Notes: generated from the letters alone by a model not told the origin. A stretch of DNA of 64,000 bases from Candidatus Omnitrophota bacterium (GCA_043821285.1 JBDRCZ010000043.1:2903-66902); one strand, 5' to 3'; shown: positions 2,369 to 46,165, counted from the stretch's first letter. Numbers and translations are program-made.

Positions 2369-2627
2369 ATAAATGGTATAATATTTCTGTGGTAAAAAAA
2401 TATTACCGATTACTACAGCAAGCTGTAACCTGTAGCCAAATTACATTGGTGGGGTGCCTCAGCTGCTGAGTTTTTCGATTTATTAATCACCTCAGATTAT
2501 GTGACCACAGATGATCCCAGATATTAAAAATCAGAATAATCTGTGAAAATCTGTGGTTGCTTGTAATTTATGATTGTTGATTAAAAGTGTAACTGATTTT
2601 TGACAGAACATTGTTCAGGTTAGTGGT

Positions 2628-3077
2628 ATGACAGTAATAGCGACCAATAAGAAAGCTAAACGTGATTTTCACATACTTGAAGCAATTGAGGCGGGCATAG
2701 AACTACGTGGTACAGAGGTCAAGTCACTTCGACAAAAAAGGGCAAATTTACAGGATAGTTTTGCCAGAGTCGAAGGGAACCAGATTTACCTCTACAATAT
2801 GCATATCAGCCCGTACGAGCAGGGTAATCGTTTTAATGTTGACTCGATAAGGGTAAGAAAATTATTACTGCATAAGAAAGAAATCCAGCGCATAACTGGT
2901 AAAATTGCCGAGCGGGGGCTTACCTTAGTGCCGTTAAGGGTATATTTTAAAAGGGGTTTTGCCAAGATTGAACTGGCCATCGCAAAAGGCAAACGCCTGT
3001 ATGATAAAAGAGAACAACTACGGCGCAAAACAACCGAGCGGGAGATTGAGAGAGCGATTAAGGCGAGAAATAAATAA
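2628..3077 (+). CDS. smpB: SsrA-binding protein SmpB
   Basis: It has the SmpB N-terminus (KKAKRDFHILEAIEAGIELRGTEVKSLR) and a basic C-terminal tail. It lies immediately upstream of the tmRNA gene. Confidence 0.9.
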   Translation: MTVIATNKKAKRDFHILEAIEAGIELRGTEVKSLRQKRANLQDSFARVEGNQIYLYNMHISPYEQGNRFNVDSIRVRKLLLHKKEIQRITGKIAERGLTLVPLRVYFKRGFAKIELAIAKGKRLYDKREQLRRKTTEREIERAIKARNK

Positions 3078-3109
3078 ATAGGCATTTTTGTTGACACAAA
3101 AATGAATGA

Positions 3110-3279
3110 CAAATGTCAAAATCCAAATGACAAATGAATCATTAAATAAAAAAATGACCTGCCAAACGACACTGCGGGCAGGCAGATAAAGAAAACAGCG
3201 GTTATTTTTTTTCTTTTGAGGATTAGAATGTTTAAAGATTCATTTGAATTTTGTCATTTGGAATTTGTCATTCTTTAGT
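3110..3279. repeat. About 37-bp inverted repeat pair (CAAATGACAAAT-rich) flanking a roughly 90-bp segment between smpB and ssrA
   Basis: The sequence gaatgacaaatgtcaaaatccaaatgacaaatgaatc (3110-3146) is the reverse complement, with a few changes, of ttcatttgaattttgtcatttggaatttgtcattc (3245-3279). Confidence 0.5.
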
Positions 3280-3302
3280 TTGGATTTTGAAATTCAATAT
3301 GT

Positions 3303-3730
3303 GGGGGTGAAAGGTATCGACTTAGGGATATAGGCTTATGTGGCATGCCGAGGTTGTCGGGAGGCCTCGTAAAACACCTGACAAAAAACAAACGCTGAGA
3401 ATATAACTGTTCCAGCAACAGTGGATCAGCTAATTGAGAAGATTGGTACAGGAATTGCCAATCCAATCATGGCTGTTCCATTGGCCGTTGCTGTCTTAAG
3501 ATAAGGCAGCCCGTCAACTTGGCTTTTCCTGTGGGCTAAGGTTGACGTCATTAAGCAGGATAGTTGGGCGCGATTAGCCTTTAGGCGCCGAACGAATCTC
3601 AAAAAGGCTGCCGCATATAAAATCCCGTTTACTGGAGTTTATATGCCTAAGCGAAAACAGCAAACTAAGCATGTAGAAGCATAAGTTACGATCCCCAAGG
3701 ACGCGGGTTCGAATCCCGCCACCTCCACCA
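3303..3730 (+). ncRNA. ssrA: tmRNA (transfer-messenger RNA, ssrA)
   Basis: The 5' GGGGGTG can pair with the 3' CACCTCC just before a terminal ACCA. A tRNA-like T-arm (gcgGGTTCGAATCCcgc) lies at 3703-3719. The gene sits directly downstream of smpB. I could not identify the tag-peptide reading frame. Confidence 0.8.
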
Positions 3731-3733
3731 GAT

Positions 3734-3766
3734 TTTTGCCCGCCAAAGAACGTGGCGGGCAAAAAT
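3734..3766 (+). terminator. Hairpin terminator after ssrA
   Basis: The sequence ttttgcccgcca-aagaacg-tggcgggcaaaa forms a 12-bp GC-rich stem flanked by T and A runs. Confidence 0.55.
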
Positions 3767-4190
3767 CAGAACCCGCGTAAGGCGGGTGATCTAATGTTCA
3801 ATTGTTCAAAAAATAGTTAACATCTTGCCAGTAGTAATTCACTAAGTAATTCGAACCCGAAAAAAGAGTTTTAGGGAAAAAGATTGTTTTTCCCTATTCC
3901 GAATGATACTAATTCGTAAGAGTAACATCGGGATGCCGATGTGATTCTTGTTAGTGTTCCACATTCGGTATCAGCGTACTGGAACAACATTGGCGGAGGG
4001 AAGAAAAATATTAAAAGGAAACTGTCAGAGTTTCCTTTTAAGGAGTGAAACCCAGCCACTGATATTGAGTGTTAGATAAACAAAAAATAAAATATAGTCT
4101 AAATATCACATAGTATAACATCAAGAACAACAACAAGAATATAGTGCATTGGATTGAACAATTATTTGCATTCTAAGAAGGCATTTAACA

Positions 4191-4661
4191 ATGTGGGAAC
4201 TTATTATTGGCGGTATTCTTGCTACGGTGGGAGGTATGGTAAGTATATGGTTTCAGGCAAAGAACGCCAGAAAGATAAGAATGGATGAAATAATTGCTGA
4301 AAAAAAGATAGTTGCAAATAATGAAGCATATATAAGAACCAAGAGGATTGAATCAATGTTAATACAGAGTTATAACATGGAAGATGTTAGAAATAAAATG
4401 CAGGACTATGAAGAGTGGTTTTTTACTAATTGCCTTTTTTTACCACGAGAATTTTCTAATAAATGGTTAACTTTGAAGATTAATGTCTCTAAAGTATGTA
4501 GAATGATGAAAAAGATTCCCTTTGAGGTCGAAAAAATAATAAAATTAGAGGGACAACTCAGTAGATTAGTGCGAGAGGCTAAAGACATAATTTATAAAGA
4601 AATGGGGCTTACAAGAATGAAAGTCGAGAATTTGCCTGAAGAAAACGATATTAACAACTAA
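4191..4661 (+). CDS. Hypothetical membrane-anchored protein (156 aa)
   Basis: The ORF has an N-terminal transmembrane helix (LIIGGILATVGGMVSIW). I recognise no domain. It is the first gene after ssrA. Confidence 0.35.
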   Translation: MWELIIGGILATVGGMVSIWFQAKNARKIRMDEIIAEKKIVANNEAYIRTKRIESMLIQSYNMEDVRNKMQDYEEWFFTNCLFLPREFSNKWLTLKINVSKVCRMMKKIPFEVEKIIKLEGQLSRLVREAKDIIYKEMGLTRMKVENLPEENDINN

Positions 4662-4724
4662 ACGATATAAGTATTATCGAGGGACAACGTTAACTATAGT
4701 AAGACAAATAAACGCGTCCATTAC

Positions 4725-5501
4725 ATGAAAAAGATATTTTTATTAATACTCATAGCAATATTTTTAGCAGGTTGTGCAACGATGCCTTATGTGTATTTAA
4801 GGTCGGATGTTTTTGCTGATTCTAAGACTGTCAGTTCGATATATATCATGCCGGTGGTAATAGAAGTTAAGGTTGATTCACAGTTTAGTATTAAACAAAA
4901 TAAACTGCAGGATTATCTGTATAAAAAAGAAAATATGATTAATGAGTTTGTTGCGTTGGAGTTTGAAAAAAGAGGATATAAAATTGTCCGTCAGAATAAA
5001 AAGTACCGCGAGTTGGATTTAGATAATCAGAATGATAAAATAGTTAAATTGGCTTTGCAGGAATTTTTAGCCTCGCCAACCAAAACCTACAGCGATGATT
5101 TAGATGTTTTTTTAAAAACAATTATTGCCGGAGAAAGGATACTTACTGATAAAGCCGGAAATGAAAAAAAGGTAGATTTTAAAAAAGTGATGGAACAAGA
5201 GGAAAAAAAAGGCGATGAGCCGCTGGTTAAGCAAACTTTAAAAATGAAAGACGTTATTCCGGAATTTATTGATACGGTACTATACATAGAAATTGAAAGT
5301 TTTATTGCTAACCGCGGCCTTTTTAATAGACTTCAGGAAAAAAGTACGGCAACGGTAAAAATGAAGCTTGTTAGTCTCAAAGAAGAAAAGGTGATTTTTT
5401 CTTACGGTGAGGAGCGGCACAAAAGAGATATTTTTCACGGGAAATCGTTTAGAAATGTTTTAATTGATATGCTGGAAAAAATCCCGATTAAAATAAAATA
5501 A
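4725..5501 (+). CDS. Lipoprotein (258 aa)
   Basis: It has a signal peptide with a lipobox (LAGC). An internal 133-bp segment is duplicated at 16268-16400. Confidence 0.55.
   Translation: MKKIFLLILIAIFLAGCATMPYVYLRSDVFADSKTVSSIYIMPVVIEVKVDSQFSIKQNKLQDYLYKKENMINEFVALEFEKRGYKIVRQNKKYRELDLDNQNDKIVKLALQEFLASPTKTYSDDLDVFLKTIIAGERILTDKAGNEKKVDFKKVMEQEEKKGDEPLVKQTLKMKDVIPEFIDTVLYIEIESFIANRGLFNRLQEKSTATVKMKLVSLKEEKVIFSYGEERHKRDIFHGKSFRNVLIDMLEKIPIKIK
5103..5235. repeat. Left copy of a 133-bp direct repeat (about 97 percent identical to 16268-16400)
   Basis: Direct alignment shows 4 mismatches in 133 bp. The repeat is internal to the lipoprotein gene. Confidence 0.85.
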
Positions 5502-5650
5502 ATATCACGCAAAGCCGCAGAGCACACAGAGAAAGAAATAAGCACGTACAGGGCATGTAGAGCAGGAAGATATAAATTAAAAGAAAGTTTGGAGCGGTAT
5601 TTTCCACAAGGTCATCTACGTAAAAAATGGGAGATGTTAGAAATTAGAAT

Positions 5651-6154
5651 ATGATACTACAATATCTGTTCATAGCACTTAGAGGAAATAATCCTTTTAC
5701 AATAATTAAAGCTCAACAATTGTTTGCAAAATATGGGTGTAAAGTTAGCCTTAATAAGTTAGAAGCGCACTATATTGTATCGAAAGAAACGAACTCGTGG
5801 GATGAATTTATAGATGCTGCAAAAATAATTTTCGAACGGGACGAGCAAATGAATTTTGAAAAGTTATGTGCTTTACATATGGCCGGTCATATTACTAAAA
5901 TAAAAAATGGGAAGAGATTGGATGAGATCGAAAAAGAAATAGCTATAAGATACGAACAGGAAATTAGAGAAAAGGGGCTTGAAGGGTATAATAAAACGAA
6001 GGTTCAGAAATTAATAAAGTGGGCACTAAAATTGATGATGAAAAATAAAGAAAAACAGGTAAAAATAGAAGAGGCAATCAAGAGGTATTCTTTGTCTGAA
6101 ATAGATGTTGCCTATATAAAAGAATATTATGGTCATATTTTTGAGAAAGAATAG
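5651..6154 (+). CDS. Hypothetical protein (167 aa), first gene of the XRE-RadC-hsdRMS string
   Basis: A complete ORF in the same orientation and immediately upstream of the HTH gene. I recognise no motif. Confidence 0.35.
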   Translation: MILQYLFIALRGNNPFTIIKAQQLFAKYGCKVSLNKLEAHYIVSKETNSWDEFIDAAKIIFERDEQMNFEKLCALHMAGHITKIKNGKRLDEIEKEIAIRYEQEIREKGLEGYNKTKVQKLIKWALKLMMKNKEKQVKIEEAIKRYSLSEIDVAYIKEYYGHIFEKE

Positions 6155-6184
6155 CCGGGGCAAGAGAAAAGTGGAGAAAAAAAT

Positions 6185-6376
6185 ATGCTCTCAGCAAATA
6201 TTAAAAAACTAAGAAAAAACACGCTATCCCATGAGCAACTTGCCCAGAAAGCCGGAATAACCTGCAGCACTCTTATCAAAATTGAATCCGGTCAAAACAA
6301 AAACCCGACCCTTGAAACAATCACAAAAATCGTAAATGCTTTTGGGGTTAAGATATATGAATTGGTGGGCGAATGA
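6185..6376 (+). CDS. XRE-family helix-turn-helix transcriptional regulator (63 aa)
   Basis: It has a Cro/C1-type HTH (LSHEQLAQKAGITCSTLIKIESGQNKNPTLETITKI). Its stop codon overlaps the radC start codon. Confidence 0.7.
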   Translation: MLSANIKKLRKNTLSHEQLAQKAGITCSTLIKIESGQNKNPTLETITKIVNAFGVKIYELVGE

Positions 6377-7095
6377 TCAGTTCTCAGAAAAGTACGAGCG
6401 CTATTCCTACATGGCCGGAAGAAGATAGGCCAAGAGAAAAGTTATTAAAAAATGGTGAACATACGCTAAGTGATTCTGAACTATTGGCGATTCTTTTAAG
6501 AACCGGCACAAAAGGACAAAGTGCAATAGATTTAGCAAGAAAAATATTACATAAGTTTAAGTCATTTCGCAAGATGAGCCATACTGATAAGAGAGAATGG
6601 ACTGAATTTAAGGGGTTGGGCATGGCAAAAATTGCTCAACTAAGAGCGGCTCTGGAAATTGCCCGCCGTTTTAACTATTATGAGAATAACAGTGTTAAAA
6701 AACCAATGTTACAATATACCGAAGAAGTGGTAGATATGTTTAAAGCAAGAATGAGGGATCTCAAATATGAAGTTTTTAAAGTAATCTTATGTGATACTAA
6801 AAACAGGATTCTCGATGTTGTTGAAATTGCGCAGGGTACTCCCGTGGAATCTTACCCAATAATACGAGAAATAATTTCAAAGGCATTACAAAGTTTTGCT
6901 GCCGGGATTATTTGCGTGCATAATCATCCACAGGGAGAGCCAGAACCAAGTAAAGACGACGAACTTTTTACAACCCAACTAAGGCAAACCTGTAAGCCAA
7001 TGGGAATCAGGCTGCTTGACCATATAATATTTGGCACCGATGAATTTTATAGTTTTGATAAAAACTGCTCTAATAGGTATAGTAAAATATGTTAA
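6373..7095 (+). CDS. radC: RadC-like JAB/MPN domain protein (UPF0758)
   Basis: It has the N-terminal helix-hairpin-helix region (SDSELLAILLRTGTKGQSAIDLA) and the JAMM motif HNHPQGEPEPSKDD. It overlaps the hsdR start codon. Confidence 0.85.
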   Translation: MISSQKSTSAIPTWPEEDRPREKLLKNGEHTLSDSELLAILLRTGTKGQSAIDLARKILHKFKSFRKMSHTDKREWTEFKGLGMAKIAQLRAALEIARRFNYYENNSVKKPMLQYTEEVVDMFKARMRDLKYEVFKVILCDTKNRILDVVEIAQGTPVESYPIIREIISKALQSFAAGIICVHNHPQGEPEPSKDDELFTTQLRQTCKPMGIRLLDHIIFGTDEFYSFDKNCSNRYSKIC

Positions 7096-9887
7096 GTGAA
7101 AATTTATCAGAACATCAAACCAGAAAAAAGATAATTGACGGTTTGTTAGAGTCTGCGGATTGGCATTTAAACAATAAAGCTGAAGTAGTAGAGGAGTTTG
7201 AGATAATTGGTGCCAGTGCATCGCAATATAAGATTGCTCAAAAGGAAACGGCATTTAATCCTTCCGGATTTTCAGACTATCTTCTTCTTGACCGCGCCGG
7301 CGAGCCTTTAGCAGTGGTTGAGGCTAAAAAGACATCACGCGATCCTATTGCTGGTAAACAGCAGGCCGAAGATTATGCAGAGGGTATAAAAAAGGCCATT
7401 GGAACAGATCCCTTTATTTTTCTGACTAATGGGTACGAATTATGGTATTGGAATAGACAGTATTATGTTCCATCAATGGTGCATGGGTTCTTTACGCGGC
7501 ACGACCTGGAGCGTTTACGATACCAAAATCAGTTCAAAAAAGATCCGCATTCTATTTCTATTAAACCATCGATTATAGATAGAGATTATCAAATTGAAGC
7601 GGTAAAACGTGTCTTTGACGGTCTTATTAAAAATAGGCGAAAATTTTTGTTAGTTATGGCTACCGGGACCGGAAAGACAAGGACCGCTATGGGATTAATA
7701 GATGTGCTTATGCGGGCAGGATGGTGTCAGAGGGTATTGTTTTTAGTAGATAGAGAGGCGCTGGCAATACAAGCCTTTAGCGATGGATTTAAGCAGCATC
7801 TTCCAAATGAATCGCGCTGTTACATAAAAAGTCGTATGGTTGATACATCAAGTCGTCTTTTCGTAGGAACAATACAGACAATGATGGAATGTTTTCATAA
7901 AATTTCACCAGGCTTTTTTGATCTTATCATTGCAGATGAATGCCACCGCTCAATATATAATAAGTGGAAAGACGTATTAAGCTATTTTTATGCGATTCAG
8001 GTTGGCCTCACAGCAACACCTTCAGATTATATCGAGAGAGATACTTTTAAGTTTTTTGATTGTTTTGAAAATGCCCCCACATTTAACTATACATATGATT
8101 GTGCCATACAAAACCGACATTTAGTTGATTTTAGGCCTCCGTATGCTGCCCAGACAAATTTTCAAATAATTGGGATCAAGGCAAGTGAGCTGCCTCCGAG
8201 CATTCAGAAAAAGCTTATTGAAGAAGGATTAACCTTGGAGGACATAAATTTTGAAGGCACAGACTTAGAGAAAAAGGTTACAAACATAGGTACCAATGAA
8301 TCATTAGTAAGAGAGTTCATGGAATTTTGTATTAAAGACGATTCAGGCGTGCTTCCAGGCAAGTCGATTATATTTGCAATTTCACATAACCATGCAAACA
8401 GGCTATGGAAGGTGTTTGACAGGCTTTATCCTGAATACAAGGGGCGGCTTGTTGAAATCATTGATTCGAAAATGGAACGGCCGATGAAACTTTTAGCAAA
8501 ATTTAAAAACGAAAGCTATCCGCGCGTTGCCATTTCTGTAGATATGCTTGATACCGGAGTGGATATTCGTGAAGTTGTCAATCTTGTGTTTGCAAAACCA
8601 GTATTCAGTAAGATTAAATTCTGGCAAATGATCGGCAGGGGGACACGGACATTAGAAAAAGAACTTAATAAAAGAAAGCCGTGGTGTATGCACAAAGACA
8701 AGTTTCTTATTATGGACCACTGGAATAATTTTGAATATTTCGGAGAAAAACCCCAGGGTGAATTACCTCCTGTTCAAGATGCGGTACCGGTTAAGATATT
8801 TAAAATACGCTTGATTAAACTAAAAATTTTCCAAGACAGAAAAGATGACCAACACTTTGAAAAAACAAAAGTTCTTATAATAAAAGATATAAAAGATTTA
8901 CCCGAAAATTCCATTACCGTGAGGGAAAATAAGCGCAATATCGACAAAGCCTTGTCAGGCCAAATATGGAAAGACCTTGACAGAAAATCATTAGAATTTT
9001 TAGAAAAGATGATCGCTCCGCTTATGAGGTTTAAAAGCGATTTCAATCTCTATGAAGCGCAATTTATTCTAAAAACTGAAAAAACCAGCCTTGCGGTATT
9101 GCAGTCTAACGCAGAAGAGATAAAACGGAACAAAGAGGCAATTATCAATGACATCAAACTGCTCCCGAGGAATTTAAGCGCGGTTAGAGCAAAAGAAGAA
9201 TGCATGAATAAGATATTATCTGAAAAATTCTGGGAGGATACAACAATAGAAAAATGTGACTATATCAGAGAAAATCTAAGTGCGATAATGAGACATAAAT
9301 TACTGGAGGAACGAGAGGTAGTTAAGCTGGATTTAGATGACTTAATAGCTGAAAGACGATGGATTGCATTTGGGCCGGAAGGCGAAGGCGATTATGTCGA
9401 AAACTACAAAGAGAAGGTTGAAAAGAAGGTTTTAAGCATAGTAGAGTCGCATCCGGCGTTAAATAAGATAAAAAACGATATCCCAATCACTGAAAAGGAC
9501 CTGGCAGATTTAGAAGATACGTTAAACAGCCCTAAATTATACATTACTGAAGAAAATCTACGCAAGACCTACCGTCAACCCTATGGCACATTTATACAAT
9601 TTTTAAAGTTTATTCTGGGGAAATATAAGTTTCCTAATCCGGAGGACATGATCAATGAATCCTTTAACACTTACGTTATAGAACGCAATAACACCAACAC
9701 GCTGTCAAGCGAGCAGATAAGGTTCTTAAGGACAGTCAAAAACGTATTTGCCCAAAAAAAACATATAGAATTTGAAGATCTATTTGAGCCGCCGTTTACG
9801 CAGTTTGGTGCAGATGCGGCGACACGGCTTTTTTCTGAAGAAGAATTGCAAGAAGTTATAGAAATATTTAATAGTATAAAAATTTAG
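7089..9887 (+). CDS. hsdR: Type I restriction enzyme R subunit (HsdR)
   Basis: The N-terminal PD-(D/E)xK nuclease is present (DYLLLD...VVEAKK). It has helicase motif I (MATGTGKT) and motif II (IIADECHRS) followed by a long C-terminal region. hsdM and hsdS follow. Confidence 0.9.
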   Translation: MLSENLSEHQTRKKIIDGLLESADWHLNNKAEVVEEFEIIGASASQYKIAQKETAFNPSGFSDYLLLDRAGEPLAVVEAKKTSRDPIAGKQQAEDYAEGIKKAIGTDPFIFLTNGYELWYWNRQYYVPSMVHGFFTRHDLERLRYQNQFKKDPHSISIKPSIIDRDYQIEAVKRVFDGLIKNRRKFLLVMATGTGKTRTAMGLIDVLMRAGWCQRVLFLVDREALAIQAFSDGFKQHLPNESRCYIKSRMVDTSSRLFVGTIQTMMECFHKISPGFFDLIIADECHRSIYNKWKDVLSYFYAIQVGLTATPSDYIERDTFKFFDCFENAPTFNYTYDCAIQNRHLVDFRPPYAAQTNFQIIGIKASELPPSIQKKLIEEGLTLEDINFEGTDLEKKVTNIGTNESLVREFMEFCIKDDSGVLPGKSIIFAISHNHANRLWKVFDRLYPEYKGRLVEIIDSKMERPMKLLAKFKNESYPRVAISVDMLDTGVDIREVVNLVFAKPVFSKIKFWQMIGRGTRTLEKELNKRKPWCMHKDKFLIMDHWNNFEYFGEKPQGELPPVQDAVPVKIFKIRLIKLKIFQDRKDDQHFEKTKVLIIKDIKDLPENSITVRENKRNIDKALSGQIWKDLDRKSLEFLEKMIAPLMRFKSDFNLYEAQFILKTEKTSLAVLQSNAEEIKRNKEAIINDIKLLPRNLSAVRAKEECMNKILSEKFWEDTTIEKCDYIRENLSAIMRHKLLEEREVVKLDLDDLIAERRWIAFGPEGEGDYVENYKEKVEKKVLSIVESHPALNKIKNDIPITEKDLADLEDTLNSPKLYITEENLRKTYRQPYGTFIQFLKFILGKYKFPNPEDMINESFNTYVIERNNTNTLSSEQIRFLRTVKNVFAQKKHIEFEDLFEPPFTQFGADAATRLFSEEELQEVIEIFNSIKI

Positions 9888-10109
9888 GAGTTTATATGAA
9901 ATCATTCTATGTTTTATCATTATACAACCGTCAGGTCTGGATTTTGGAAGAAAATGGAAAATGCGATTGTTGAAAAAAGCCCGATGGTACAAAGATCGTA
10001 AGATTTAAACCGGTACCAGCTAAAGACACCCCTGTTTTTATGAAAGCAACAATAGAACTTTATAATGACGGTATAAAGGAAAACAAACTGAACAAAAGCA
10101 GGTATACTA

Positions 10110-10150
10110 ATCTATAAAGTAGGTATTATATTAATAAAATTACCTACTTT
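10110..10150. promoter_or_regulatory. A 9-bp perfect inverted repeat (aagtaggta...tacctactt) in the hsdR-hsdM spacer
   Basis: The hairpin or operator is visible in the sequence and sits 15 nt upstream of the hsdM start. Confidence 0.35.
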
Positions 10151-10164
10151 ATGAGGGGATTAAA

Positions 10165-11670
10165 ATGCTTAAATCCTATCCAGAAATAAAGAGTAAAATA
10201 GACAAACTTTGGGATATGTTCTATTCGGGAGGCATGTCTAATCCTCTGGTTGCAATTGAGCAAATATCCTATCTTATTTATATGAAAAGACTTGAGGATA
10301 TGGACAATCAACAGAGAAAAGCAGCCGAAAGAAGAGGGCAAAAATACACTTCTATATTTAAAGGTAAAGAACACTGCTGTTGGTCCCACTGGATGCACTT
10401 TGATGCAGAGCGCATGCTAAAGACTGTAAGAGAAGAAGTTTTTCAATTCATCAAAGAGTTAAAAGGAGAAGGTAGTTTTTACGCAGAATCAATGAAGGAC
10501 GCGGTGTTTCTTATCCCAAAGGCATCCCTTATTCAGGAGGCGGTTAAGATAATAGATGACATAAATCTGTCTGCCAAAGGCATAGACCTTCAGGGTGATA
10601 TTTACGAATATTTATTGAGTGAAATATCACAATCCGGCAAAAACGGACAATTCCGCACGCCCAGGCATATTATTAGAATGATTGTCGAGCTTGTAGATCC
10701 TAAATTGGGTAACAAAATTTGTGACCCGGCCTGCGGTACCGGCGGCTTTTTAATCGGCGCGTATAATCATATCTTAAAAGAAAATACGGATCCGGAAAAC
10801 ATAGAATGCGATGAAGACGGCGCCCCGCATAATTTAACCGGAGATAAAATTATAGAAAAAAAACACTGGAAATTTTTGTGGGAAAAATCTTTTTATGGAT
10901 ATGATTTTGATACCACCATGGTGCGTATTGGCTTAATGAATATGATCCTTCACGGCATCGCCAATCCCCTTATAAGATATGCTGATACTTTATCCAAGAG
11001 CTTCCAAGAAAGAGAGCTTTACGATATTATCCTTGCTAATCCGCCTTTTAAAGGAAGTGTTGACAGAAGCGATGTTGCCGAGGATTTAAGCGTTGTTGGA
11101 AAAAGTAAAAAACCAAAAACAGAACTTTTATTTCTTAATCTCTTTGTGAATATGCTCATCCCAGGGGGCCGGTGCGGGGTTATTGTCCCTGATGGCGTAC
11201 TTTTCGGCTCAAGCAACGCCCACCTTGACACAAGGAAGCTGATTTTAGAGAAATGCGGCTTAGAAGCAATAATTTCAATGCCATCAGGCGTATTTAAGCC
11301 CTATGCCGGGGTTTCAACCGCGATACTCGTATTTACCAAAGGCGAAAGAACCGATAAAGTCTGGTATTACGATATGGAAGCGGATGGCTATTCATTAGAT
11401 GATAAACGTGCCAAAATAGAAAAGAATGATATACCGGATATTATTGAAAAATGGAATTCTCGTAACAAAAATAAAGAACCAAAGAAAGGCGAGAAATGGC
11501 TGTGGGTGAATTATGATGAAATAAAGAAGAATAATTATGATTTATCAATTTCTCGCTACAAGCCGATTGAGTATGAGGAAATAGAATACGAAAAGCCGGA
11601 AACACTAATTACTAAAATTGAGAACCTCGAAAAAGAAATATTAACGGATTTGAGCAGGATTAATTTATAG
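10165..11670 (+). CDS. hsdM: Type I R-M N6-adenine DNA methyltransferase (HsdM)
   Basis: It has the HsdM N-terminal domain, a SAM-binding motif (DPACGTGGFL) and the catalytic NPPF motif (LANPPFKGS). Confidence 0.9.
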   Translation: MLKSYPEIKSKIDKLWDMFYSGGMSNPLVAIEQISYLIYMKRLEDMDNQQRKAAERRGQKYTSIFKGKEHCCWSHWMHFDAERMLKTVREEVFQFIKELKGEGSFYAESMKDAVFLIPKASLIQEAVKIIDDINLSAKGIDLQGDIYEYLLSEISQSGKNGQFRTPRHIIRMIVELVDPKLGNKICDPACGTGGFLIGAYNHILKENTDPENIECDEDGAPHNLTGDKIIEKKHWKFLWEKSFYGYDFDTTMVRIGLMNMILHGIANPLIRYADTLSKSFQERELYDIILANPPFKGSVDRSDVAEDLSVVGKSKKPKTELLFLNLFVNMLIPGGRCGVIVPDGVLFGSSNAHLDTRKLILEKCGLEAIISMPSGVFKPYAGVSTAILVFTKGERTDKVWYYDMEADGYSLDDKRAKIEKNDIPDIIEKWNSRNKNKEPKKGEKWLWVNYDEIKKNNYDLSISRYKPIEYEEIEYEKPETLITKIENLEKEILTDLSRINL

Positions 11671-11674
11671 GATT

Positions 11675-12877
11675 ATGATTAGCATATTACAAAACGCAAC
11701 AATAGAAAGTCTATTATCTGAAACTATAACTGGCGAGTGGGGCATTATGTCTACTGGTGAAACAGGTGTAAAAGTAATTAGAACCACTAACTTTACAAAC
11801 GAAGGCAAGTTGAATCTTGATAATGTAGCCATACGAGATATTCCCCAGGATATAATTAACAGGAAGAAGCTTCGATATGAAGACATTATCTTAGAAAAGT
11901 CAGGTGGCAGTGATAATTTTTCAGTGGGCAGAGTCATTTATTTTGATTTGAAACCAAAGGAAGAATATTTATGCAATAATTTTACTCAAATTTTGCGAAT
12001 AGATAGCAAGAAAGCATACTCTAAATACGTATTTTATTATCTATTTTATCAACACAAGATTGGTGTTGTAAAAAATTTTCAAAATAAAACTACTGGAATA
12101 CGAAATTTACAAACTAAGCGATATTTAGCTCAAAAGATTCCAACCCCCTCAATTGATGTACAGCGCAAAATTGCCTCTATTCTCGACAAATGCGAATCCG
12201 CACGCGCAAAACGTAAAGAGGCAAGTCGTCTTACTGATGAATTCCTCAGGTCTGTGTTTTTTGATATGTTCGGGGATCCGGTGGGAAATACAAGGCAATG
12301 GGCTGTTGATAAAGTAAAAAATATTTGTTCTGCAGAAAGCGGAGGAACGCCGTCAACTAAAAAGAAGAAATATTGGGAAAAAGGAAAAATCCCTTGGCTT
12401 GGGTCTACATGTTGCAAGAATAATTTTGTAAGAGAAAGTAAGTCATATATAACCAAGGAAGGACTTGAGAATTCTTCTGCAAAAATATTCAAAAAGAAAA
12501 CCGTAATTGTTGCGTTGGTTGGTGCCACAATCGGAAAAACAGGCTTTTTGGAATTTGATTCAACCACCAATCAAAATATAGCAGGTTTATATCCTTTAAA
12601 AGACGATAGAATCATACCGGAGTATCTTTTTTTTACAATACAGTTTTTATACCCGCATTTTTTAGCATTAAGTAGGAGCGGGTTCAAAATGGCAAATCTA
12701 GCTTTTATCCGCAATTTAAGTATACCGCTACCTCCGAAAGAAATACAAAAAAAATTCGCCGGCATTGTCCAAAAAGTCGAGCAGTTAAAACAAAAACAAA
12801 GAGAATCCGAAAGAGAATTAAACAACCTTTTTAATTCTTTAATGCAAAAAGCTTTTAAAGGGGAGTTGGTTGGATAA
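11675..12877 (+). CDS. hsdS: Type I R-M specificity subunit (HsdS)
   Basis: It has two target-recognition domains separated by conserved coiled-coil regions, and it lies directly after hsdM. Confidence 0.85.
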   Translation: MISILQNATIESLLSETITGEWGIMSTGETGVKVIRTTNFTNEGKLNLDNVAIRDIPQDIINRKKLRYEDIILEKSGGSDNFSVGRVIYFDLKPKEEYLCNNFTQILRIDSKKAYSKYVFYYLFYQHKIGVVKNFQNKTTGIRNLQTKRYLAQKIPTPSIDVQRKIASILDKCESARAKRKEASRLTDEFLRSVFFDMFGDPVGNTRQWAVDKVKNICSAESGGTPSTKKKKYWEKGKIPWLGSTCCKNNFVRESKSYITKEGLENSSAKIFKKKTVIVALVGATIGKTGFLEFDSTTNQNIAGLYPLKDDRIIPEYLFFTIQFLYPHFLALSRSGFKMANLAFIRNLSIPLPPKEIQKKFAGIVQKVEQLKQKQRESERELNNLFNSLMQKAFKGELVG

Positions 12878-12887
12878 AACTTCAGGC

Positions 12888-12927
12888 CAGTCTCAACTTG
12901 ACAACAGCTGTAACAACAGCAGATTAA
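12888..12927. repeat. Left copy of a 40-bp perfect direct repeat (cagtctcaacttgacaacagctgtaacaacagcagatta); similarity extends to about 55 bp
   Basis: It is identical to 14529-14568 and starts 10 nt after the hsdS stop codon. It contains the palindromic core ACAGCTGT. Confidence 0.85.
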
Positions 12928-12931
12928 ATAA

Positions 12932-13162
12932 ATATCGTGTCCCCGGAATTACAAGATTGAAACTCCCATTGGTACATATAATCCAGATTGGGCTATTTTG
13001 AAAGAAAACGGTAAAATTGTTTATATGATTAGGGAGACTAAATCCACCAAAGAACAGCTCAAATTAAGACTGCCAGAGGTAGATAATATCCACTGCGGAC
13101 GTCAGCATTTCTTGGCCATAGGAGTGGATTATGATGTGGCGACAACGGTTGAGGAGCTATAA
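12932..13162 (+). pseudogene. C-terminal remnant of a restriction endonuclease with a PD-ExK nuclease motif (type III Res-like)
   Basis: The 76-codon frame has no start codon. It translates to ...PIGTYNPDWAILKENGKIVYMIRETKS..., which is a PD...ExK motif of the kind found at the C-terminus of type III Res subunits. Confidence 0.5.
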
Positions 13163-13209
13163 ACCTATGACGCAGATAAGAAAAAGGGGATGCTTTTCGG
13201 AAAAGCTGT

Positions 13210-13818
13210 TTGAAAATGCAAGAAAACGATAAATATAAAAAGGCAATAGAGAGAAATTTATTTGAAATCACACATGCTTTGCTTGAGTATAAAGCATTAG
13301 CTGCTTTTGACAAATATCGTATTAACAAACATGTTGCTACAAAAGGGGAAAATTTTTTTACAATCTCTTTTAGAGCGCTACATAACGATATGATAGCGCA
13401 TGCGATCAAAGTACTGGATAAAAATGTAGATAGTGCAACCTTTTGGCACATCTTCGATAAAGATACAAAAACAATAGAAGAGTTAGAAAATTTTTCGCAG
13501 GAGAAATTGAAAATTTTAAATGATTTGGCGGAAAAATTAAAAATTCTTCGGGACAAGACACATTTTCATATAGACAAAAATGGTGTTTTGGAGCCAGATA
13601 AGGTTTGGGAAAGAGCTGATATAAAAGGAAAAGACTTAGGCGAGGGGTTAGTTTTTTTATTTTCTATATTGAATGAATTATATCGAAAAGTTTTTGGTAA
13701 AGAATTCCTATTCAGACTTGAAGATTATGACGAAAAAGATTTGGGTAAGTTACTAGATATTGCCGGATCAAATGAGCTTATCGAAGTTGTTCCAAGGGTG
13801 GGGATACCCCATGATTAA
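13210..13818 (+). CDS. Hypothetical protein with a possible HEPN-like Rx4-6H motif (202 aa)
   Basis: The sequence LRDKTHFHID fits the Rx4-6H pattern, and the protein is alpha-helical and charged. This is weak motif-level evidence only. Confidence 0.3.
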   Translation: MKMQENDKYKKAIERNLFEITHALLEYKALAAFDKYRINKHVATKGENFFTISFRALHNDMIAHAIKVLDKNVDSATFWHIFDKDTKTIEELENFSQEKLKILNDLAEKLKILRDKTHFHIDKNGVLEPDKVWERADIKGKDLGEGLVFLFSILNELYRKVFGKEFLFRLEDYDEKDLGKLLDIAGSNELIEVVPRVGIPHD

Positions 13819-13936
13819 CCTTGTTTTTATACAGGGGATAAATCATCAATGTAATTGCTAAAGAGCAAAGCAAAAGAACAGCTTAAATAAAATATAGTGA
13901 TGAAAACACCAAAAATTTTTACCCTATGGAGGCAAT

Positions 13937-14497
13937 ATGAATCTTCATGCTTGGCAGATGGCATGCCAATATATTATAGTACTGGGCGTTGTAATATCAG
14001 CGATAGGAAGTTTTGGATCGTTCTATTTCGGGAAAAAAATTGAACAAACGAAAGATAAAGAAATAACAACAAAAGAAGCAGAATTTAAAGACAAGCTTAC
14101 TATTCTTATAAAAGGTAACGAAGTAATACAAAATCACCTTAAAACAGCATACAAGGAATTAACAGACCAGCAAAAAGAGAAGCTTGTTTTAATGCTTGCA
14201 GTTGCAAAAGAGAAAAATATAACAATCAACGCAGTTTTGGGAGGACAAGGATCTTTCGAACTTGCAAATAGGTTGAAAACAGTTTTTATAGACGCAGGAT
14301 GGAATGTAAATGGGGTAAATCAGTCAGTATATAATGTGCCATTTGTTGGATTATTTGTGTCCATACCAGAGGGGCCTACCCCAGAAGAAGCTAACGTTAT
14401 TTATCGTGGTTTTAAGACGATCGGTTATGAAGTGAAGGGGAACAGGGATGCAAACCAACAAAATCGTTTAGCGTTAATTGTTGGCTCAAAACTATAA
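13937..14497 (+). CDS. Hypothetical membrane-anchored protein (186 aa)
   Basis: It has an N-terminal transmembrane helix followed by a coiled-coil-like region. It is paired with the preceding ORF inside the repeat-bracketed cassette. Confidence 0.3.
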   Translation: MNLHAWQMACQYIIVLGVVISAIGSFGSFYFGKKIEQTKDKEITTKEAEFKDKLTILIKGNEVIQNHLKTAYKELTDQQKEKLVLMLAVAKEKNITINAVLGGQGSFELANRLKTVFIDAGWNVNGVNQSVYNVPFVGLFVSIPEGPTPEEANVIYRGFKTIGYEVKGNRDANQQNRLALIVGSKL

Positions 14498-14528
14498 AAT
14501 AGCCCAAATATTATAATAAGCATCGGGG

Positions 14529-14568
14529 CAAGTCTCAACTTGACAACAGCTGTAACAACAGCAGATTA
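14529..14568. repeat. Right copy of the 40-bp perfect direct repeat
   Basis: It is identical to 12888-12927. Confidence 0.85.
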
Positions 14569-14698
14569 ATAATTAAGTATTGTGTCCACAGACTAACAGA
14601 CTAAAAAATACCCTTGCAATTTGAATGAAAAAGTTATACAATTCATAATATATAATACCATATTTAGGATAGGATTGGTTATAAAAGGAGAATAAAAT

Positions 14699-15442
14699 AT
14701 GCCAAGTAGAATAGAGCATTTTTTTAGTAAGTCAAAAGTACAGCAGTTTATTGTGCAGTTTGCTTGCCGAGTACCGATTCGTAAGACACTTAATAAGGGA
14801 GAAAAAACAGCATTAGAAAATGTATTGAGAGATTTAGATAGTACGAATTTTCAACTCTTTGATGAACAATTACAGAATAATCCTCCGTATTTGTTTCAGG
14901 TTCTTCATCAGCTTCCAGTAGGAGCTGCTTCAATCACATTGCCTTCTTTTGTTTTTTCTAACGACAGTTTTTCTTTTATTTTTCCAATTAAAATGTCTAG
15001 CAATATTATCTCAGGAATTGGCTCGATCGATACTAGTGATATGAATTTAAAAATAATTGATTGGGTACTTAAAGTGCAAGATATTATTAGCAATTTACAC
15101 TGTCAACGTGCTGGAAAAATATTTGATTTAGTTTTGGGGCCATTTAATCAAGAAGAAAAACTGCAGATATTTAATGAATTGTTTTCTATGAAGCTTACTA
15201 ATATTGGTGAGCTTAATCTAACTTTTGCTGATTATCGTACATCTGGGCCAGATCTTTTTAATATACAAACAAATATTCGTTATTTACAAGCAAAATTAGA
15301 TGAAAGTTTTTTTATTAATACTCGTGTTGATATTAATAACAGACAGCTTTTTAATTCAATGGAGCCTCCCAATATTAAAAAAGTTTGGGAATTTGCAGAT
15401 TCGATAATAGATGAGCATTTTAAAAACATACTTATTTTATAA
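14699..15442 (+). CDS. Hypothetical protein (247 aa)
   Basis: A complete ORF preceded by an RBS (aaaggag). I recognise no motif. Confidence 0.35.
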   Translation: MPSRIEHFFSKSKVQQFIVQFACRVPIRKTLNKGEKTALENVLRDLDSTNFQLFDEQLQNNPPYLFQVLHQLPVGAASITLPSFVFSNDSFSFIFPIKMSSNIISGIGSIDTSDMNLKIIDWVLKVQDIISNLHCQRAGKIFDLVLGPFNQEEKLQIFNELFSMKLTNIGELNLTFADYRTSGPDLFNIQTNIRYLQAKLDESFFINTRVDINNRQLFNSMEPPNIKKVWEFADSIIDEHFKNILIL

Positions 15443-15468
15443 AAATTTTTTAATAAGGAATTAAGATA

Positions 15469-15873
15469 ATGATTAATTTTGTTTTCCCTAATTTTTGCAC
15501 AGAAGAAGAGATAACTAAGAAACAGATAAACAAAACAACTACGACGGTTTCAGTAATGTCGATAGGTGGCATATATACTACTAAAACCAACACACTAGCA
15601 GATGAAACAGCATTGAGAAGTGTGCTTATTACAAAAAATCCGAATATATGTCAAGGGAAACCGATAATTCTTGGTACACGTATTTCAGTTTCAAATATTG
15701 TAGAATTGCATTATTTGTTAAACTGGAATATTCAAAAGATTCGTGATGAATATCCACACTTGAGTAATGAACAAATAATTGCTGCACTTGAGTATTATGA
15801 AAACCACACAAAAGAGATAGATTCTTATTTGCAAGAAGAAAAAGAGATAAATGCCGCATATAGAGATACCTAA
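15469..15873 (+). CDS. DUF433-family protein (putative antitoxin-like)
   Basis: Its C-terminal region (CQGKPIILGTRISVSNIVELH...EQIIAALEYY) resembles DUF433. It overlaps the next gene. Confidence 0.55.
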   Translation: MINFVFPNFCTEEEITKKQINKTTTTVSVMSIGGIYTTKTNTLADETALRSVLITKNPNICQGKPIILGTRISVSNIVELHYLLNWNIQKIRDEYPHLSNEQIIAALEYYENHTKEIDSYLQEEKEINAAYRDT

Positions 15874-16207
15874 ACTCTACCTGAATGAAAATATACCTAT
15901 TCGTTTAGTTAGTTTGTTATCAAACCTTGGAATTATAGCAATACATACCTTAAGTGTAAATAATCAAGGAACTAGTGATGAGTTTCAACTGCAATATGCA
16001 GCAGAAAGAGGCTACATAATAGTAACACATAATAGAAAAAATTTTAGGCAGTTACATAAGAGATGGATCCATGAAGGGAAATGTCACGCTGGTATTATAG
16101 TTATGCGTCATGATGAGCCCGAACGTTTGGCAGATAGAATTAAGCGCTTTTTTGAACAAGATTATTTTAATATTACTTTACCATTTTGCGAATCGCCACC
16201 TGCATGA
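15851..16207 (+). CDS. DUF5615 / Mut7-C-like PIN-fold protein (putative toxin partner of DUF433)
   Basis: Its size and the motifs IRLVSLLSNLGIIAIH and YIIVTHNRKNF resemble that family. The DUF433-DUF5615 gene pairing is known. Confidence 0.5.
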   Translation: MPHIEIPKLYLNENIPIRLVSLLSNLGIIAIHTLSVNNQGTSDEFQLQYAAERGYIIVTHNRKNFRQLHKRWIHEGKCHAGIIVMRHDEPERLADRIKRFFEQDYFNITLPFCESPPA

Positions 16208-16249
16208 ATCAAAAGTTGCCACTGAGAAGTTAAACTTTGGAAAGAATTT

Positions 16250-16400
16250 ATGGATTTTCATAAAAAAGATGTTTTTTTAAAAACAATTATTGCCGGAGAA
16301 ATGATCCTTGCTGATAAAGCCGGAAATGAAAAAAAGGTAGATTTTAAAAAAGTGATGGAACAAGAGGAAAAAAAAGGCGATGAGCCGCTGGTTAGGCAAA
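16250..16400 (+). pseudogene. Duplicated internal fragment of the lipoprotein gene at 4725-5501 (right copy of the 133-bp direct repeat)
   Basis: The 16268-16400 segment is about 97 percent identical to 5103-5235. The reading frame is conserved only across the repeat. Confidence 0.6.
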
Positions 16401-16649
16401 TTGTTTGCGGTAATGTATGGACTGTTTTCGCTTATAGTTATACCATTTATGTTGATTGGAATGTTATTATCACCAGAAAATAGGGGACCCAGGGTAATAT
16501 TTCTTTTATTTATACCTATTTTATATATTATCCTTGGCTTTATTGGCGGTGTCATTGGTGCTTTTGTTTATAATCTTTGTGCTAAATGGGTTGGCGGGAT
16601 TGAATTAGAATTTGAGGAAGAAAAAGAACCACCCATTTCAAATGAATAA
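16380..16649 (+). CDS. Possible small two-helix membrane protein (89 aa)
   Basis: A hydrophobic ORF that starts inside the repeat in a different frame. The evidence is weak. Confidence 0.2.
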   Translation: MSRWLGKLFAVMYGLFSLIVIPFMLIGMLLSPENRGPRVIFLLFIPILYIILGFIGGVIGAFVYNLCAKWVGGIELEFEEEKEPPISNE

Positions 16650-17117
16650 TAGCAGTGATACTATATATGAAGAAACTGGACTCTGAAGGAAAAAAATAAA
16701 AAATAATAAATTATAAAAAAATGCCTTTTACCCCCTTTCATTTTGGCCAGCATGCTTTGGTGGATTTAGCTGTAGCTAAAAGAATAAATGTGCTGGTTTT
16801 TATCATGGCAAATATAATTATTGATATTGAGCCATTGTATGGGTTTGTTTCGTATACAGTGCTTTATAAAATTTGCGGCTTTATGTTTTTATCGGCAATA
16901 GCGCTATATATTTATAAAGCAAAAAATATATAACACCTTGAACCACAAAACTTACGATTTTTAATATAAATCCTTTTCCATTCGTGTTAATTTGTGTTAT
17001 TCGTGGTTGAATATTTTTTAACCTGCCGCATCTACAGTACGAGACTGTCGGGGACAAAGACTTTTCTTGTTTTATCTATGGTGTACAATGAAATAGTACT
17101 ATGACTTAAGCTTTTTC

Positions 17118-17147
17118 TTGTCAAAACCTGCCTTTTAATGTTATAAT
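17118..17147 (+). promoter_or_regulatory. Sigma-70-like promoter (-35 TTGTCA, 18-bp spacer, -10 TATAAT) for the murI-queDC operon
   Basis: The hexamers are read directly from the sequence. Confidence 0.5.
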
Positions 17148-17158
17148 CTTTGCAAACA

Positions 17159-17206
17159 ATTTCAAAATTCGAATATTCAAAGATTCTAAGATTTAAAAAT
17201 TCAAAG
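17159..17206. repeat. Six tandem octamer repeats (ATTYNAAN: atttcaaa attcgaat attcaaag attctaag atttaaaa attcaaag) in the murI leader
   Basis: The repeat is seen directly. It lies between the promoter -10 and the murI start codon. Confidence 0.8.
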
Positions 17207-17268
17207 CGTTTTGTTTGCTGGTTGAGCGGCAGAGAATTTAGAATTTTCGAATGAGGAGTTATATACAA

Positions 17269-18072
17269 ATGTCTGACGCAAGGCCGATTGGGGTGTTTGA
17301 TTCCGGGGTCGGGGGGCTAACCGTTGTCCGGGAGTTGCTGCGGCAATTGCCGGATGAAGATATTGTTTATTTTGGCGATACCGCCCGGGTCCCTTACGGG
17401 ATAAAGTCAAAAGATACGGTTATTAAATTTACTTTTGAGAATATATTTTTTCTTTTGAAATTCGACGTGAAGCAAATTGTTATTGCCTGTAATACTGCCT
17501 CTTCCCTGGCATTGCCGACAATTAAAAGGCAGTTTAAAACTCCGCTTATCGGCGTGATTGCCCCGGGAGCGAAAGAAGCAGTCTATGCAACAAAGAATAA
17601 AAAGGTCGGGGTAATCGGTACGCGGGCAACAATAAATAGCGGCGCGTATAAACAGTATATTAAAAAGTTTGCCCCATCGGTCAAGGTGTATAGTTTGAGC
17701 TGTCCGTTATTTGTGCCTTTGGCTGAAGAGGGATATTTAGACTCTAACATCACCTATCAGGTTGCATTAGAATATCTGGGACCTTTAAAAAAATTAAATG
17801 TTGATACGATAATCTTAGGCTGTACCCATTACCCGCTCTTAAAACCAGTAATTAGAAAAGTCGTGGGGAAAAAGGTCGTGCTGATTGATTCGGCTAAGCA
17901 GGTTGTTGCTGAGGTCAAGGAGATTTTAAAAGAAGAAGGTTTGGAGTCTAATAAACAGAGAAAAGGTCAGGTTAAATTTTTTGTTTCTGATGAAACAGAG
18001 TTTTTTACCAGGGTCGGCCGAAGGTTTCTGGGTAATTATTTAAAAGATGTGAAAAAGGTGGATAATGTTTAA
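17269..18072 (+). CDS. murI: Glutamate racemase
   Basis: It has the motifs GVFDSGVGGLTV, ACNTAS and GCTHYPLL. The internal ATG at 17269 has a GAGGAG RBS upstream, whereas the ORF track starts 18 nt earlier. Confidence 0.9.
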   Translation: MSDARPIGVFDSGVGGLTVVRELLRQLPDEDIVYFGDTARVPYGIKSKDTVIKFTFENIFFLLKFDVKQIVIACNTASSLALPTIKRQFKTPLIGVIAPGAKEAVYATKNKKVGVIGTRATINSGAYKQYIKKFAPSVKVYSLSCPLFVPLAEEGYLDSNITYQVALEYLGPLKKLNVDTIILGCTHYPLLKPVIRKVVGKKVVLIDSAKQVVAEVKEILKEEGLESNKQRKGQVKFFVSDETEFFTRVGRRFLGNYLKDVKKVDNV

Positions 18073-18415
18073 GGTTCGGGTTGTTTCTGAATTTAATGCC
18101 GCACATAACTTGCGCCATTACCGGGGCAAATGTGAAGCACTCCATGGGCATAACTGGAAGGTGGAGATTTCGGTTTGTAGAAAAAACTTAGATCATTTGG
18201 GTATGGTCGTAGATTTTAAGCACTTAAAAAAAAAGCTCAACAAAATTTTAGACAGCCTTGACCATAAGTATCTGAATAAGCTGCCGGCTTTTAAAAAGAT
18301 AAATCCTACCTCGGAAAATATCGCAAAATATATATTTGTAAATTTAAAGTTAAAAGGCGCGCAAGTCACGGTCTGGGAAACAAATACCTCGAGTGCGAGT
18401 TTTTGGCAAGAATGA
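18065..18415 (+). CDS. queD: 6-carboxy-5,6,7,8-tetrahydropterin synthase
   Basis: It has PTPS-family motifs (HNLRHYRGKCEALHGHNWKVE). It overlaps murI and queC. Confidence 0.85.
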   Translation: MFKVRVVSEFNAAHNLRHYRGKCEALHGHNWKVEISVCRKNLDHLGMVVDFKHLKKKLNKILDSLDHKYLNKLPAFKKINPTSENIAKYIFVNLKLKGAQVTVWETNTSSASFWQE

Positions 18416-19089: not shown

Positions 19090-19119
19090 TTTTGTCTACC
19101 GACAATGGACTGTTTTAGA

Positions 19120-19300
19120 ATAATGGTAACGTTTTTCGGTTACGGTGACGGGGCCCGTTTCGGCGTTTGGTTACGGTAACGTCAGTTTTTTGTATTGTGT
19201 ATTGAGTTGTGAGTATTGTGTTTTTATTGTCATCCTTTTAGTTTTCATGCTCAATACGCAATACGTATTTATTAGACGTATCCGTTAAACGTTACCGATA
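19120..19300. repeat. Nested inverted-repeat element in the queC-queE spacer
   Basis: The outer arms are tggtaacgtttttcgg (19123-19138) and ccgttaaacgttaccg (about 19282-19297). The inner arms are gtattgtgtattgag and ctcaatacgcaatac. It also contains direct repeats of ggttacggt(g/a)acg. Confidence 0.5.
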
Positions 19301-19384
19301 TCGAAGATCCGCCGGTATTGTGGTGGACGGGCTTCCTAACCCTTACCGAAACTACGAAGTGGTACAGGCGGGAATTAAACAATC

Positions 19385-20056: not shown

Positions 20057-20081
20057 GTAGTATTGTTTATGCAGGCTAAAT

Positions 20082-46163: not shown

Positions 46164-46165
46164 AT

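Follow-up and report, generated by a model that had tools for sequence, protein, structure and literature searches.

A variable defence region beside ssrA in a Candidatus Omnitrophota genome, and a direct repeat within it that probably marks a partial duplication

In a 64,000-nucleotide (nt) stretch of a Candidatus Omnitrophota metagenome-assembled genome (MAG; GCA_043821285.1, JBDRCZ010000043.1:2903-66902; hereafter the window), two copies of a 134-nt direct repeat enclose about 11 kb of accessory genes downstream of ssrA, the gene encoding transfer-messenger RNA (tmRNA). A preliminary description of this DNA took the two copies to be the limits of a defence island and proposed that they arose as an attachment-site (att)-type duplication of target-gene sequence by an integrative element. 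We favour a different reading. The variable unit is the whole interval between ssrA and murI (3731-17250; 13,520 nt), probably an eroding, integrase-less defence hotspot adjacent to ssrA, and the second repeat copy is probably the scar of a partial duplication inside it.

The interval between ssrA and murI

Reading along the plus strand, the window carries a Mem_trans gene, smpB (2628-3077; Pfam SmpB, E 8e-58) and ssrA (3303-3730; ARAGORN; Rfam RF00023, 188.8 bits), followed by the variable interval. To the right of the interval stand murI, encoding glutamate racemase (17251-18072, plus strand; Pfam Asp_Glu_race), queD, queC, a gene for a QueE-like radical S-adenosylmethionine (SAM) protein, and the genes for fumarase, RNase PH and Ham1. 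Scanning GTDB with MurI yielded 11 Omnitrophota-type loci that hold both a tmRNA gene and murI. One of these, CAZUZR010000037.1 (L008, identical to L017), has the order smpB, tmRNA, an Amidase_3 lipoprotein gene, murI, queD, queC, queE, fumarase A/B, rph and Ham1, and its murI-to-Ham1 block is collinear with positions 17251-23283 of the window. The smpB flank is likewise syntenic with L009 and L010, in both of which the upstream Mem_trans gene is also kept. Identity to the window protein reaches 73% for the nearest SmpB and 65% for the nearest MurI (51-65% across the relatives compared), and the closest relatives found belong to other genera.

Between these conserved flanks the content varies. 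The distance from ssrA to murI is 1.13-1.98 kb in nine of the 11 relatives, where it is taken up by one orthologous amidase gene, and widens to 3.1 kb (L023) and 5.8 kb (L029) in the other two; the 1.1-5.8 kb seen in relatives compares with 13.5 kb in the window. None of 15 window proteins encoded between 4191 and 16933 is present in the 11 related ssrA-murI loci. The genes that lie outside both repeat copies (orf156, the 5' part of the lipoprotein gene, a DUF3566-family gene and orf70) are as absent from the 11 relatives as are the genes enclosed by the repeats, and distant relatives are without the lipoprotein gene altogether. Since the synteny resumes at ssrA and murI, and since the genes between them are missing from relatives, the variable unit is 3731-17250, and the lipoprotein gene, both repeat copies and the outer genes all lie inside it. 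Delimitation of the island by the repeats is refuted by this 11-genome synteny, which places the boundaries at ssrA (3730) and murI (17251). At the right-hand side, a member of a dispersed intergenic repeat (16966-17018; inverted copy at 47619-47671, 87% identical) suggests that resident sequence may resume just after orf70 (16721-16933, plus strand), the last open reading frame (ORF) of the interval, which has no assigned function or family and is absent from relatives.

The Amidase_3 lipoprotein gene stands between ssrA and murI in all 11 relatives compared (L009-L027) and was not found anywhere in the 64-kb window. This normally conserved cell-wall gene, kept in every relative, therefore appears to have been lost or moved when the island formed, and the hotspot interval would have replaced the single gene found at this position elsewhere.

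The preliminary description had correctly placed the element about 1.4 kb downstream of ssrA; the tmRNA gene ends 1,371 nt upstream of the first repeat copy, and everything from 3731 onwards is non-syntenic with relatives, so that the variable DNA begins directly 3' of ssrA. Two relatives carry repeats of the ssrA 3' end. In L017 a 21/22-nt match lies at 1249-1270, 142 nt downstream of ssrA, and at 801-1095 of L022 the ssrA end and a 15/16-nt repeat of it enclose an ORF for a GIY-YIG nuclease. These repeats mark the locus as an integration hotspot in this lineage. Extra genes on the ssrA side of the amidase gene occur in L022 (the GIY-YIG ORF) and in L023 (two further ORFs). In contrast to L017 and L022, the window yielded no duplicate of the 3' end of ssrA, either where the variable DNA ends or elsewhere (up to 3 mismatches in 22-25 nt; blastn-short).

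The tmRNA of the window is itself long (428 nt), with an open frame from about 3395 and a predicted tag of about 36 residues that ends in ...AVPLAVAVLR and not in the usual ...ALAA. Among the relatives noted alongside it (L009, L010, L012, L021 and L023), several have tmRNAs of 408-435 nt with long or non-canonical predicted tags; the predicted tag of other relatives is short, ANE(Q)LALAA.

The direct repeat and its junctions

The repeat occupies 5102-5235 (copy 1) and 16267-16400 (copy 2), both on the plus strand. The copies are identical at 130 of 134 positions, with mismatches at 5137/16302, 5141/16306, 5145/16310 and 5230/16395 and longest exact runs of 35 and 84 nt, and they form by far the strongest self-match within the window. 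Their edges are sharp, neither blastn (word size 7) nor tblastx finding homology beyond either one. Copy 1 comprises native codons 127-170 of an intact lipoprotein gene of 258 codons (4725-5501, plus strand) with a lipobox signal, the source of the repeated sequence, and copy 2 is an isolated internal fragment of the same gene, carried in the lipoprotein frame by a chimeric ORF of 77 amino acids (16250-16483). The preliminary description had given a repeat of about 133 bp and 97 percent identity, lying in an intact gene on the left and in a frame-conserving fragment on the right; all of this holds, with an ambiguity of 1 nt at the edge. A third, weak copy of the repeat core at 19813-19869 (70%) is a chance match within the unrelated QueE-like radical-SAM gene.

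The lipoprotein is close to an orphan. Its sole homologue among 5.8 billion proteins, P0002, is about 55% identical over the full length, and the alignment spans the repeat region and the last 88 codons, which indicates that copy 1 and the 3' end of the gene are both native. No match was returned by a scan of GTDB with the lipoprotein or by lipoprotein-family scans of metagenome and viral contigs, and exact look-ups of window proteins in public assemblies found no copy outside the source NCBI MAG. On L001, the only other contig with a lipoprotein gene of this kind, no DUF3566 gene was found downstream of it. A resemblance of the signal peptide to those of the relatives' amidases was considered and is not significant (E 0.14-0.18). 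The AlphaFold model of the protein is poor (predicted local distance difference test, pLDDT, 53.7), too low to justify a fold search; in it the duplicated residues 127-170 fall within a Lys/Glu-rich stretch (117-181), and pLDDT is mostly below 50 at segments 117-143 and 152-181, the halves of the protein on either side being better predicted.

The right end of copy 2 runs into a DUF3566-family membrane-protein gene (16380-16649, plus strand) whose ATG lies inside the repeat, in a frame different from that of the lipoprotein. This ORF has 1142 homologues in a family of membrane proteins of about 90 amino acids with a conserved basic N-terminal segment, the family consensus beginning MKKRIKRISVLQAGK. 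The window ORF lacks the basic segment (consensus MKKRIKRISVLQ) and covers profile positions 13-94; in most homologues its residue 5 aligns with their residue 13, and they typically have 8 more N-terminal residues. Because the alignment begins only at profile position 13, about 12 codons and the native start are missing, the right junction having removed the 5' end of the gene. The codons TTA GGC AAA (L G K, 16392-16400), which form the very end of the repeat, add 7.4 bits to the match with the family profile, a gain reached by 0.5% of random splice points, and the mismatch at 16395, where the lipoprotein AGC becomes GGC, supplies the family's conserved glycine. Most simply, the two genes would have been joined within a GTTA(A/G)GCAAA microhomology common to both, and the last bases of the repeat, some 6-10 nt, would be native DUF3566 codons. 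The start codon at 16380 and the purine-rich leader before it come from lipoprotein sequence in another frame and would now serve the truncated membrane-protein gene if the restart ORF is expressed.

Two other origins for the N-terminus of this ORF were tried and set aside. Had copy 2 been a clean 133-nt insertion, removal of 16268-16400 would put MDFHKK (16250-16267) in frame with DUF3566; MDFHKK gains +3.7 bits, against +5.8 to 7.4 for the present sequence, and six codons are too few to carry weight. The frame-0 peptide LHESKVATEKLNFGK (16200-16244) would have to start at CTG, and its gain as a family N-terminus is matched by 78% of control regions when all splice points are allowed.

The anatomy of this junction also bears on the possibility that the copy at 16267-16400 is spurious, put there by an assembler that crossed a repeat or a bubble of strain variants. 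The sequence is a MAG contig, and no independent assembly of the locus occurs in the collections searched. However, the copies differ at four positions, each copy has unique sequence on both sides, and the right junction meets codons conserved in the DUF3566 family; from a graph error one would sooner expect copies without differences, or only one chimeric join. We regard such an artefact as very unlikely.

What, then, of the proposed att pair, in which attL and attR would bound an 11.2-kb integrative element that has lost its integrase or depends on one supplied in trans? Several observations speak for it: direct repeats flank accessory genes near ssrA, the scars at the ssrA end in L017 and L022 are att-like, and restriction-modification (R-M) blocks related to the one between the copies stand next to mobility landmarks elsewhere. 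On metagenome contig L004 a large serine recombinase gene (2-853, minus strand) adjoins a related XRE-RadC-R-M block, and on L005 the block begins 165 nt after a tRNA-Ser(CGA) gene (2710-2799), so that the block itself probably travels on integrative elements elsewhere. Even so, this reading fits the locus poorly. The repeats do not mark the boundary between conserved and variable DNA, which falls at ssrA and murI. Elements that rebuild the gene they enter leave its displaced end beside the distal repeat. Copy 2 corresponds to codons 127-170 of 258 and stops 266 nt short of the equivalent of the gene end; as it is internal, with no displaced lipoprotein end beside it, its geometry is not that of an att site. 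Recombination between the copies would fuse the first 170 codons of the lipoprotein gene to what is left of the membrane-protein gene, and the resulting "empty site" would consist of two broken genes. Copy 2 moreover ends inside a truncated gene, the related R-M blocks have different flanks and ends and carry no lipoprotein sequence, and serine recombinases are known to leave only very short repeats.

Nor was a recombinase gene or remnant detected, in agreement with the earlier remark that no integrase lies between or beside the repeats. All scans were made within the 64-kb window. Domain scans of 20 ORFs across 1409-18415 and of six-frame translations of 3731-4190, 9888-10164, 12878-13209 and 16650-17250 turned up no recombinase, the gaps 5502-5650, 13819-13936 and 14498-14698 lying outside the scan. 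Thirty further window ORFs were also negative, six large ones (23286-25211, 31525-33693, 33713-35629, 44274-46163, 50383-52314 and 53267-55099) being outside the domain scan. The window holds no trace of the L004 serine recombinase, and the scanned non-coding DNA holds no integrase remnants. Composition, which the preliminary description had proposed to compare with the flanks, shows no contrast: GC is 0.354 for 5236-16266 and 0.359 for the rest of the window, and in tetranucleotide distance the island-sized segment comes 4th among 27 sliding windows, inside the usual range. The preliminary description had said that the repeat would be an old local duplication if relatives carried both copies with no empty site and if composition could not be told from the flanks; the second half of this is what we observe. 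Taken together, the synteny, the internal fragment, the broken empty site, the truncated gene and the composition leave the att-type duplication unsupported, and we consider it quite improbable.

Copy 2 is a patch of 128-134 nt with two novel junctions, one at 16266/16267 and the other at about 16391-16400. The right edge lies in the 5' coding part of a gene that is short by about 12 codons, which is a mark of illegitimate recombination. We therefore favour an origin of copy 2 as a partial duplicate produced by illegitimate recombination, copy 1 being native lipoprotein coding sequence. The most economical path draws on well-known bacterial processes and has two steps. In a first step, a tandem duplication of about 5103-16266 would have created a join point that survives as the left junction of copy 2. 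In a second, a remodelling deletion would have taken what remained of the second copy along with ~12 codons from the start of the DUF3566 gene, joining at GTTA(A/G)GCAAA. Templated patching of a double-strand break, in one step, would yield an identical product and is indistinguishable from the two-step route.

The same junctions could also be reached by insertion without an integrase. A circle bearing the 3' part of a lipoprotein gene and the 11-kb cargo, closed at 16266/16267, would enter the resident lipoprotein gene by a single crossover, and a later microhomology deletion would remove the displaced lipoprotein 3' end and the DUF3566 start. A single crossover would be expected to keep the left-hand gene whole and to leave the right-hand copy without its 5' end, and a smaller repeat pair within the interval (12885-12953 and 14527-14598) has the same geometry, bracketing a cassette whose first gene is 5'-truncated. 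The R-M block, too, is clearly mobile between genomes. Against this, the scheme needs three events and not two, together with a donor whose lipoprotein gene was nearly identical, and the only other known member of the family is 55% identical. Neither circle, donor nor intermediate was found: 28 nt from the core of the repeat had no match in a metagenome scan, nor had the 11-kb block in a megablast against plasmids. We judge this insertion unlikely, though less so than an att pair or an artefact. A further idea, to which we give slightly less credence than to the att pair or the artefact, is that the repeats, with their perfect run of 84 nt, act as a RecA substrate, occasionally looping out the 11.2 kb as a circle carrying the R-M and toxin-antitoxin genes that could re-insert by homologous crossover wherever lipoprotein sequence exists. 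If true, a defence block could be transferred by an integrase-free route, and its loss would be penalised by the addiction modules.

Several points weigh against partial duplication within an eroding hotspot. The nearest genomes lie outside the genus, and we infer the order and type of the rearrangements from junction anatomy alone. The microhomology argument turns on a stretch of 9-10 nt and one p of about 0.005. Of the four mismatches, three fall within 9 nt, for which the proposed events give no specific account. Both junctions are known from metagenome assembly alone, and the domain scan did not extend to the ~14.8 kb of the 78.8-kb contig beyond the window or to the six large ORFs named above.

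Content and erosion of the interval

The accessory content ascribed to the DNA between the copies in the preliminary description is borne out. A gene for an XRE-type helix-turn-helix (HTH) regulator (6185-6376; Pfam HTH_3, E 7e-13) and one for a RadC-like JAB protein (6373-7095; Pfam RadC, E 3e-36; NCBIfam RadC) precede predicted Type I R-M genes, which by Pfam content encode HsdR (7089-9887; ResIII, EcoEI_R_C), HsdM (10165-11670; N6_Mtase, E 3e-67; HsdM_N) and HsdS (11675-12877; Methylase_S; 37-57% identity to relatives) in consecutive ORFs from 7089 to 12877. Further along are a gene for an AbiU2-like HEPN protein (13210-13818), borderline at 26.7 bits against a Pfam HEPN_AbiU2 cut-off of 26.8, and a pair encoding a DUF433 protein (15469-15873; Pfam DUF433, E 2.5e-18) and a DUF5615/PIN-like protein (15851-16207; Pfam DUF5615, E 8e-17), the putative antitoxin and toxin. 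Defence genes thus cluster here, with the R-M genes, this pair and the borderline HEPN gene joined by remnants of a Fic gene and a restriction endonuclease gene. These and all the genes below are on the plus strand.

Four other ORFs are orphans, like orf70: orf156 (4191-4661), to the left of copy 1, with no Pfam, PADLOC or PHROG family and forming a single-member protein cluster; orf167 (5651-6154), with sub-threshold matches only; orf186 (13937-14497), probably a membrane protein, with weak holin-like PHROG matches only; and orf247 (14699-15442), with no family in any library. PADLOC, PHROG and NCBIfam added no assignment to the orphan ORFs, and the HTH protein was the only one that PADLOC recognised among the ORFs outside the R-M genes.

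At the DNA level the RadC-HsdR-HsdM-HsdS block shares 82-84% identity with blocks on three further metagenome contigs, and HsdR shares 90% amino-acid identity with the copies on L002-L005. The XRE protein is only 43-44% identical to that of L004 and L005 while the product of the next gene is 79% identical, which points to a mosaic breakpoint near 6412. An intact Fic gene of 349 codons lies between hsdR and hsdM in L004, and a Fic gene has the same position in L002. The window keeps a 185-nt internal piece (9902-10086) left by two internal deletions, 81% identical in nucleotides to L004 5524-5709. Just upstream of hsdM, at 10114-10152, is a 40-nt near-perfect palindrome that may be an operator or terminator left at the site of the Fic deletion; similar palindromes occur at 4011-4041 and 46165-46207. 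Common to L004 and L005 is a GC-rich non-coding leader, about 260-400 nt long, that contains a 9-nt inverted repeat (GGCTCGGCA ... TGCCGAGCC) and has no Rfam match.

The second, shorter direct repeat (12885-12953 and 14527-14598; 98% identity over a 43-nt core and 85% over 72 nt) brackets a 1.6-kb cassette that holds the endonuclease remnant, the AbiU2-like ORF and orf186. The remnant (12923-13162) is the C-terminal part of a restriction endonuclease gene; stop codons precede it, and it covers positions 28-106 of the 108 in the Pfam RE_endonuc profile (PF19778, E 9e-20). The repeat contains two short palindromes; folded as RNA (43-72 nt) it gave no stable structure, and it had no match in other loci or viral contigs.

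At least five deletion or rearrangement scars therefore lie within 13.5 kb, among them the Fic and endonuclease remnants, the second repeat pair, the truncated DUF3566 gene and the missing amidase gene. The interval would then be a mosaic under erosion, made up of a Type I R-M operon with its XRE and RadC genes, the AbiU2-like cassette, the DUF433/PIN-like pair, orphan ORFs and remnants.

Elsewhere in the window, dispersed intergenic repeats form further pairs besides the 16966-17018/47619-47671 pair: 47536-47602/62281-62347, 55449-55545/62368-62464, 44217-44272/55199-55253 and 25208-25233/55115-55140. Motifs resembling CACGGAT/ATCCGTG build the intergenic repeats around 16966-17018, 47520-47730 and 62250-62530. 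They could be regulatory elements or elements of the repetitive extragenic palindromic (REP) type belonging to this genome. Rfam recognised nothing beyond the tmRNA and tRNAs.

Relation to known hotspots and duplications

The locus is fairly ordinary and leaves current understanding unchanged, yet it carries a lesson for annotation: where accessory genes near ssrA are enclosed by a long direct repeat, the repeat can mimic an att pair, and here synteny and junction anatomy point to a rearrangement scar. It would add an example from Omnitrophota, a poorly sampled phylum, to the defence hotspots without mobility genes. Three gene remnants, the loss of a core amidase gene and a partial gene duplicate illustrate erosion, and the DUF3566 gene appears to be a small natural example of a truncated gene gaining its start codon and leader from the out-of-frame sequence of another gene.

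Integration hotspots at tmRNA genes are known, E. coli defence hotspot #9 being one (PMC10121019, which cites Williams 2002, PMC100330, and Williams 2003, PMC142792). Like these, the window has a defence-rich variable segment directly 3' of ssrA between conserved flanking genes, and its relatives bear scars at the ssrA end. Unlike them, it yielded neither an integrase nor a duplicate of the ssrA 3' end, no mobile-element backbone could be recognised, and the neighbouring core amidase gene has gone as well. Hotspots without mobility genes offer another parallel. In E. coli hotspot #37, 68% of cases are without a detectable mobile genetic element, and the core defence hotspots of P. aeruginosa are described there, with reference to PMC10250203, as a second example without an identifiable mode of mobilisation (PMC10121019). 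As in these, diverse defence genes lie between fixed core genes in the window, the content is mosaic, and modules are exchanged between genomes. The E. coli and P. aeruginosa hotspots were defined from hundreds of genomes of the same species, whereas the present one is defined by cross-species synteny only (MurI 51-65%).

With regard to the repeat, prophages that target a gene and rebuild it, such as phage 21 and e14 in icd, duplicate a stretch that runs to the gene end, leave the displaced end at the far junction and carry an integrase. The window resembles them in that a stretch of a protein-coding gene is present twice around other DNA and the left gene is intact. It differs in that the duplicate is internal, stopping before the gene end with no displaced end, and in that no integrase was found. 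Tandem duplication followed by remodelling deletion has reportedly been seen in amplifications of Salmonella and E. coli under laboratory selection, according to reviews by Reams and Roth. Although the process in the window is read from a single natural sequence and not from such selection, its product is much like these remodelled duplications, in which a unique segment comes to lie between the original and a short partial duplicate whose junctions show little or no homology.

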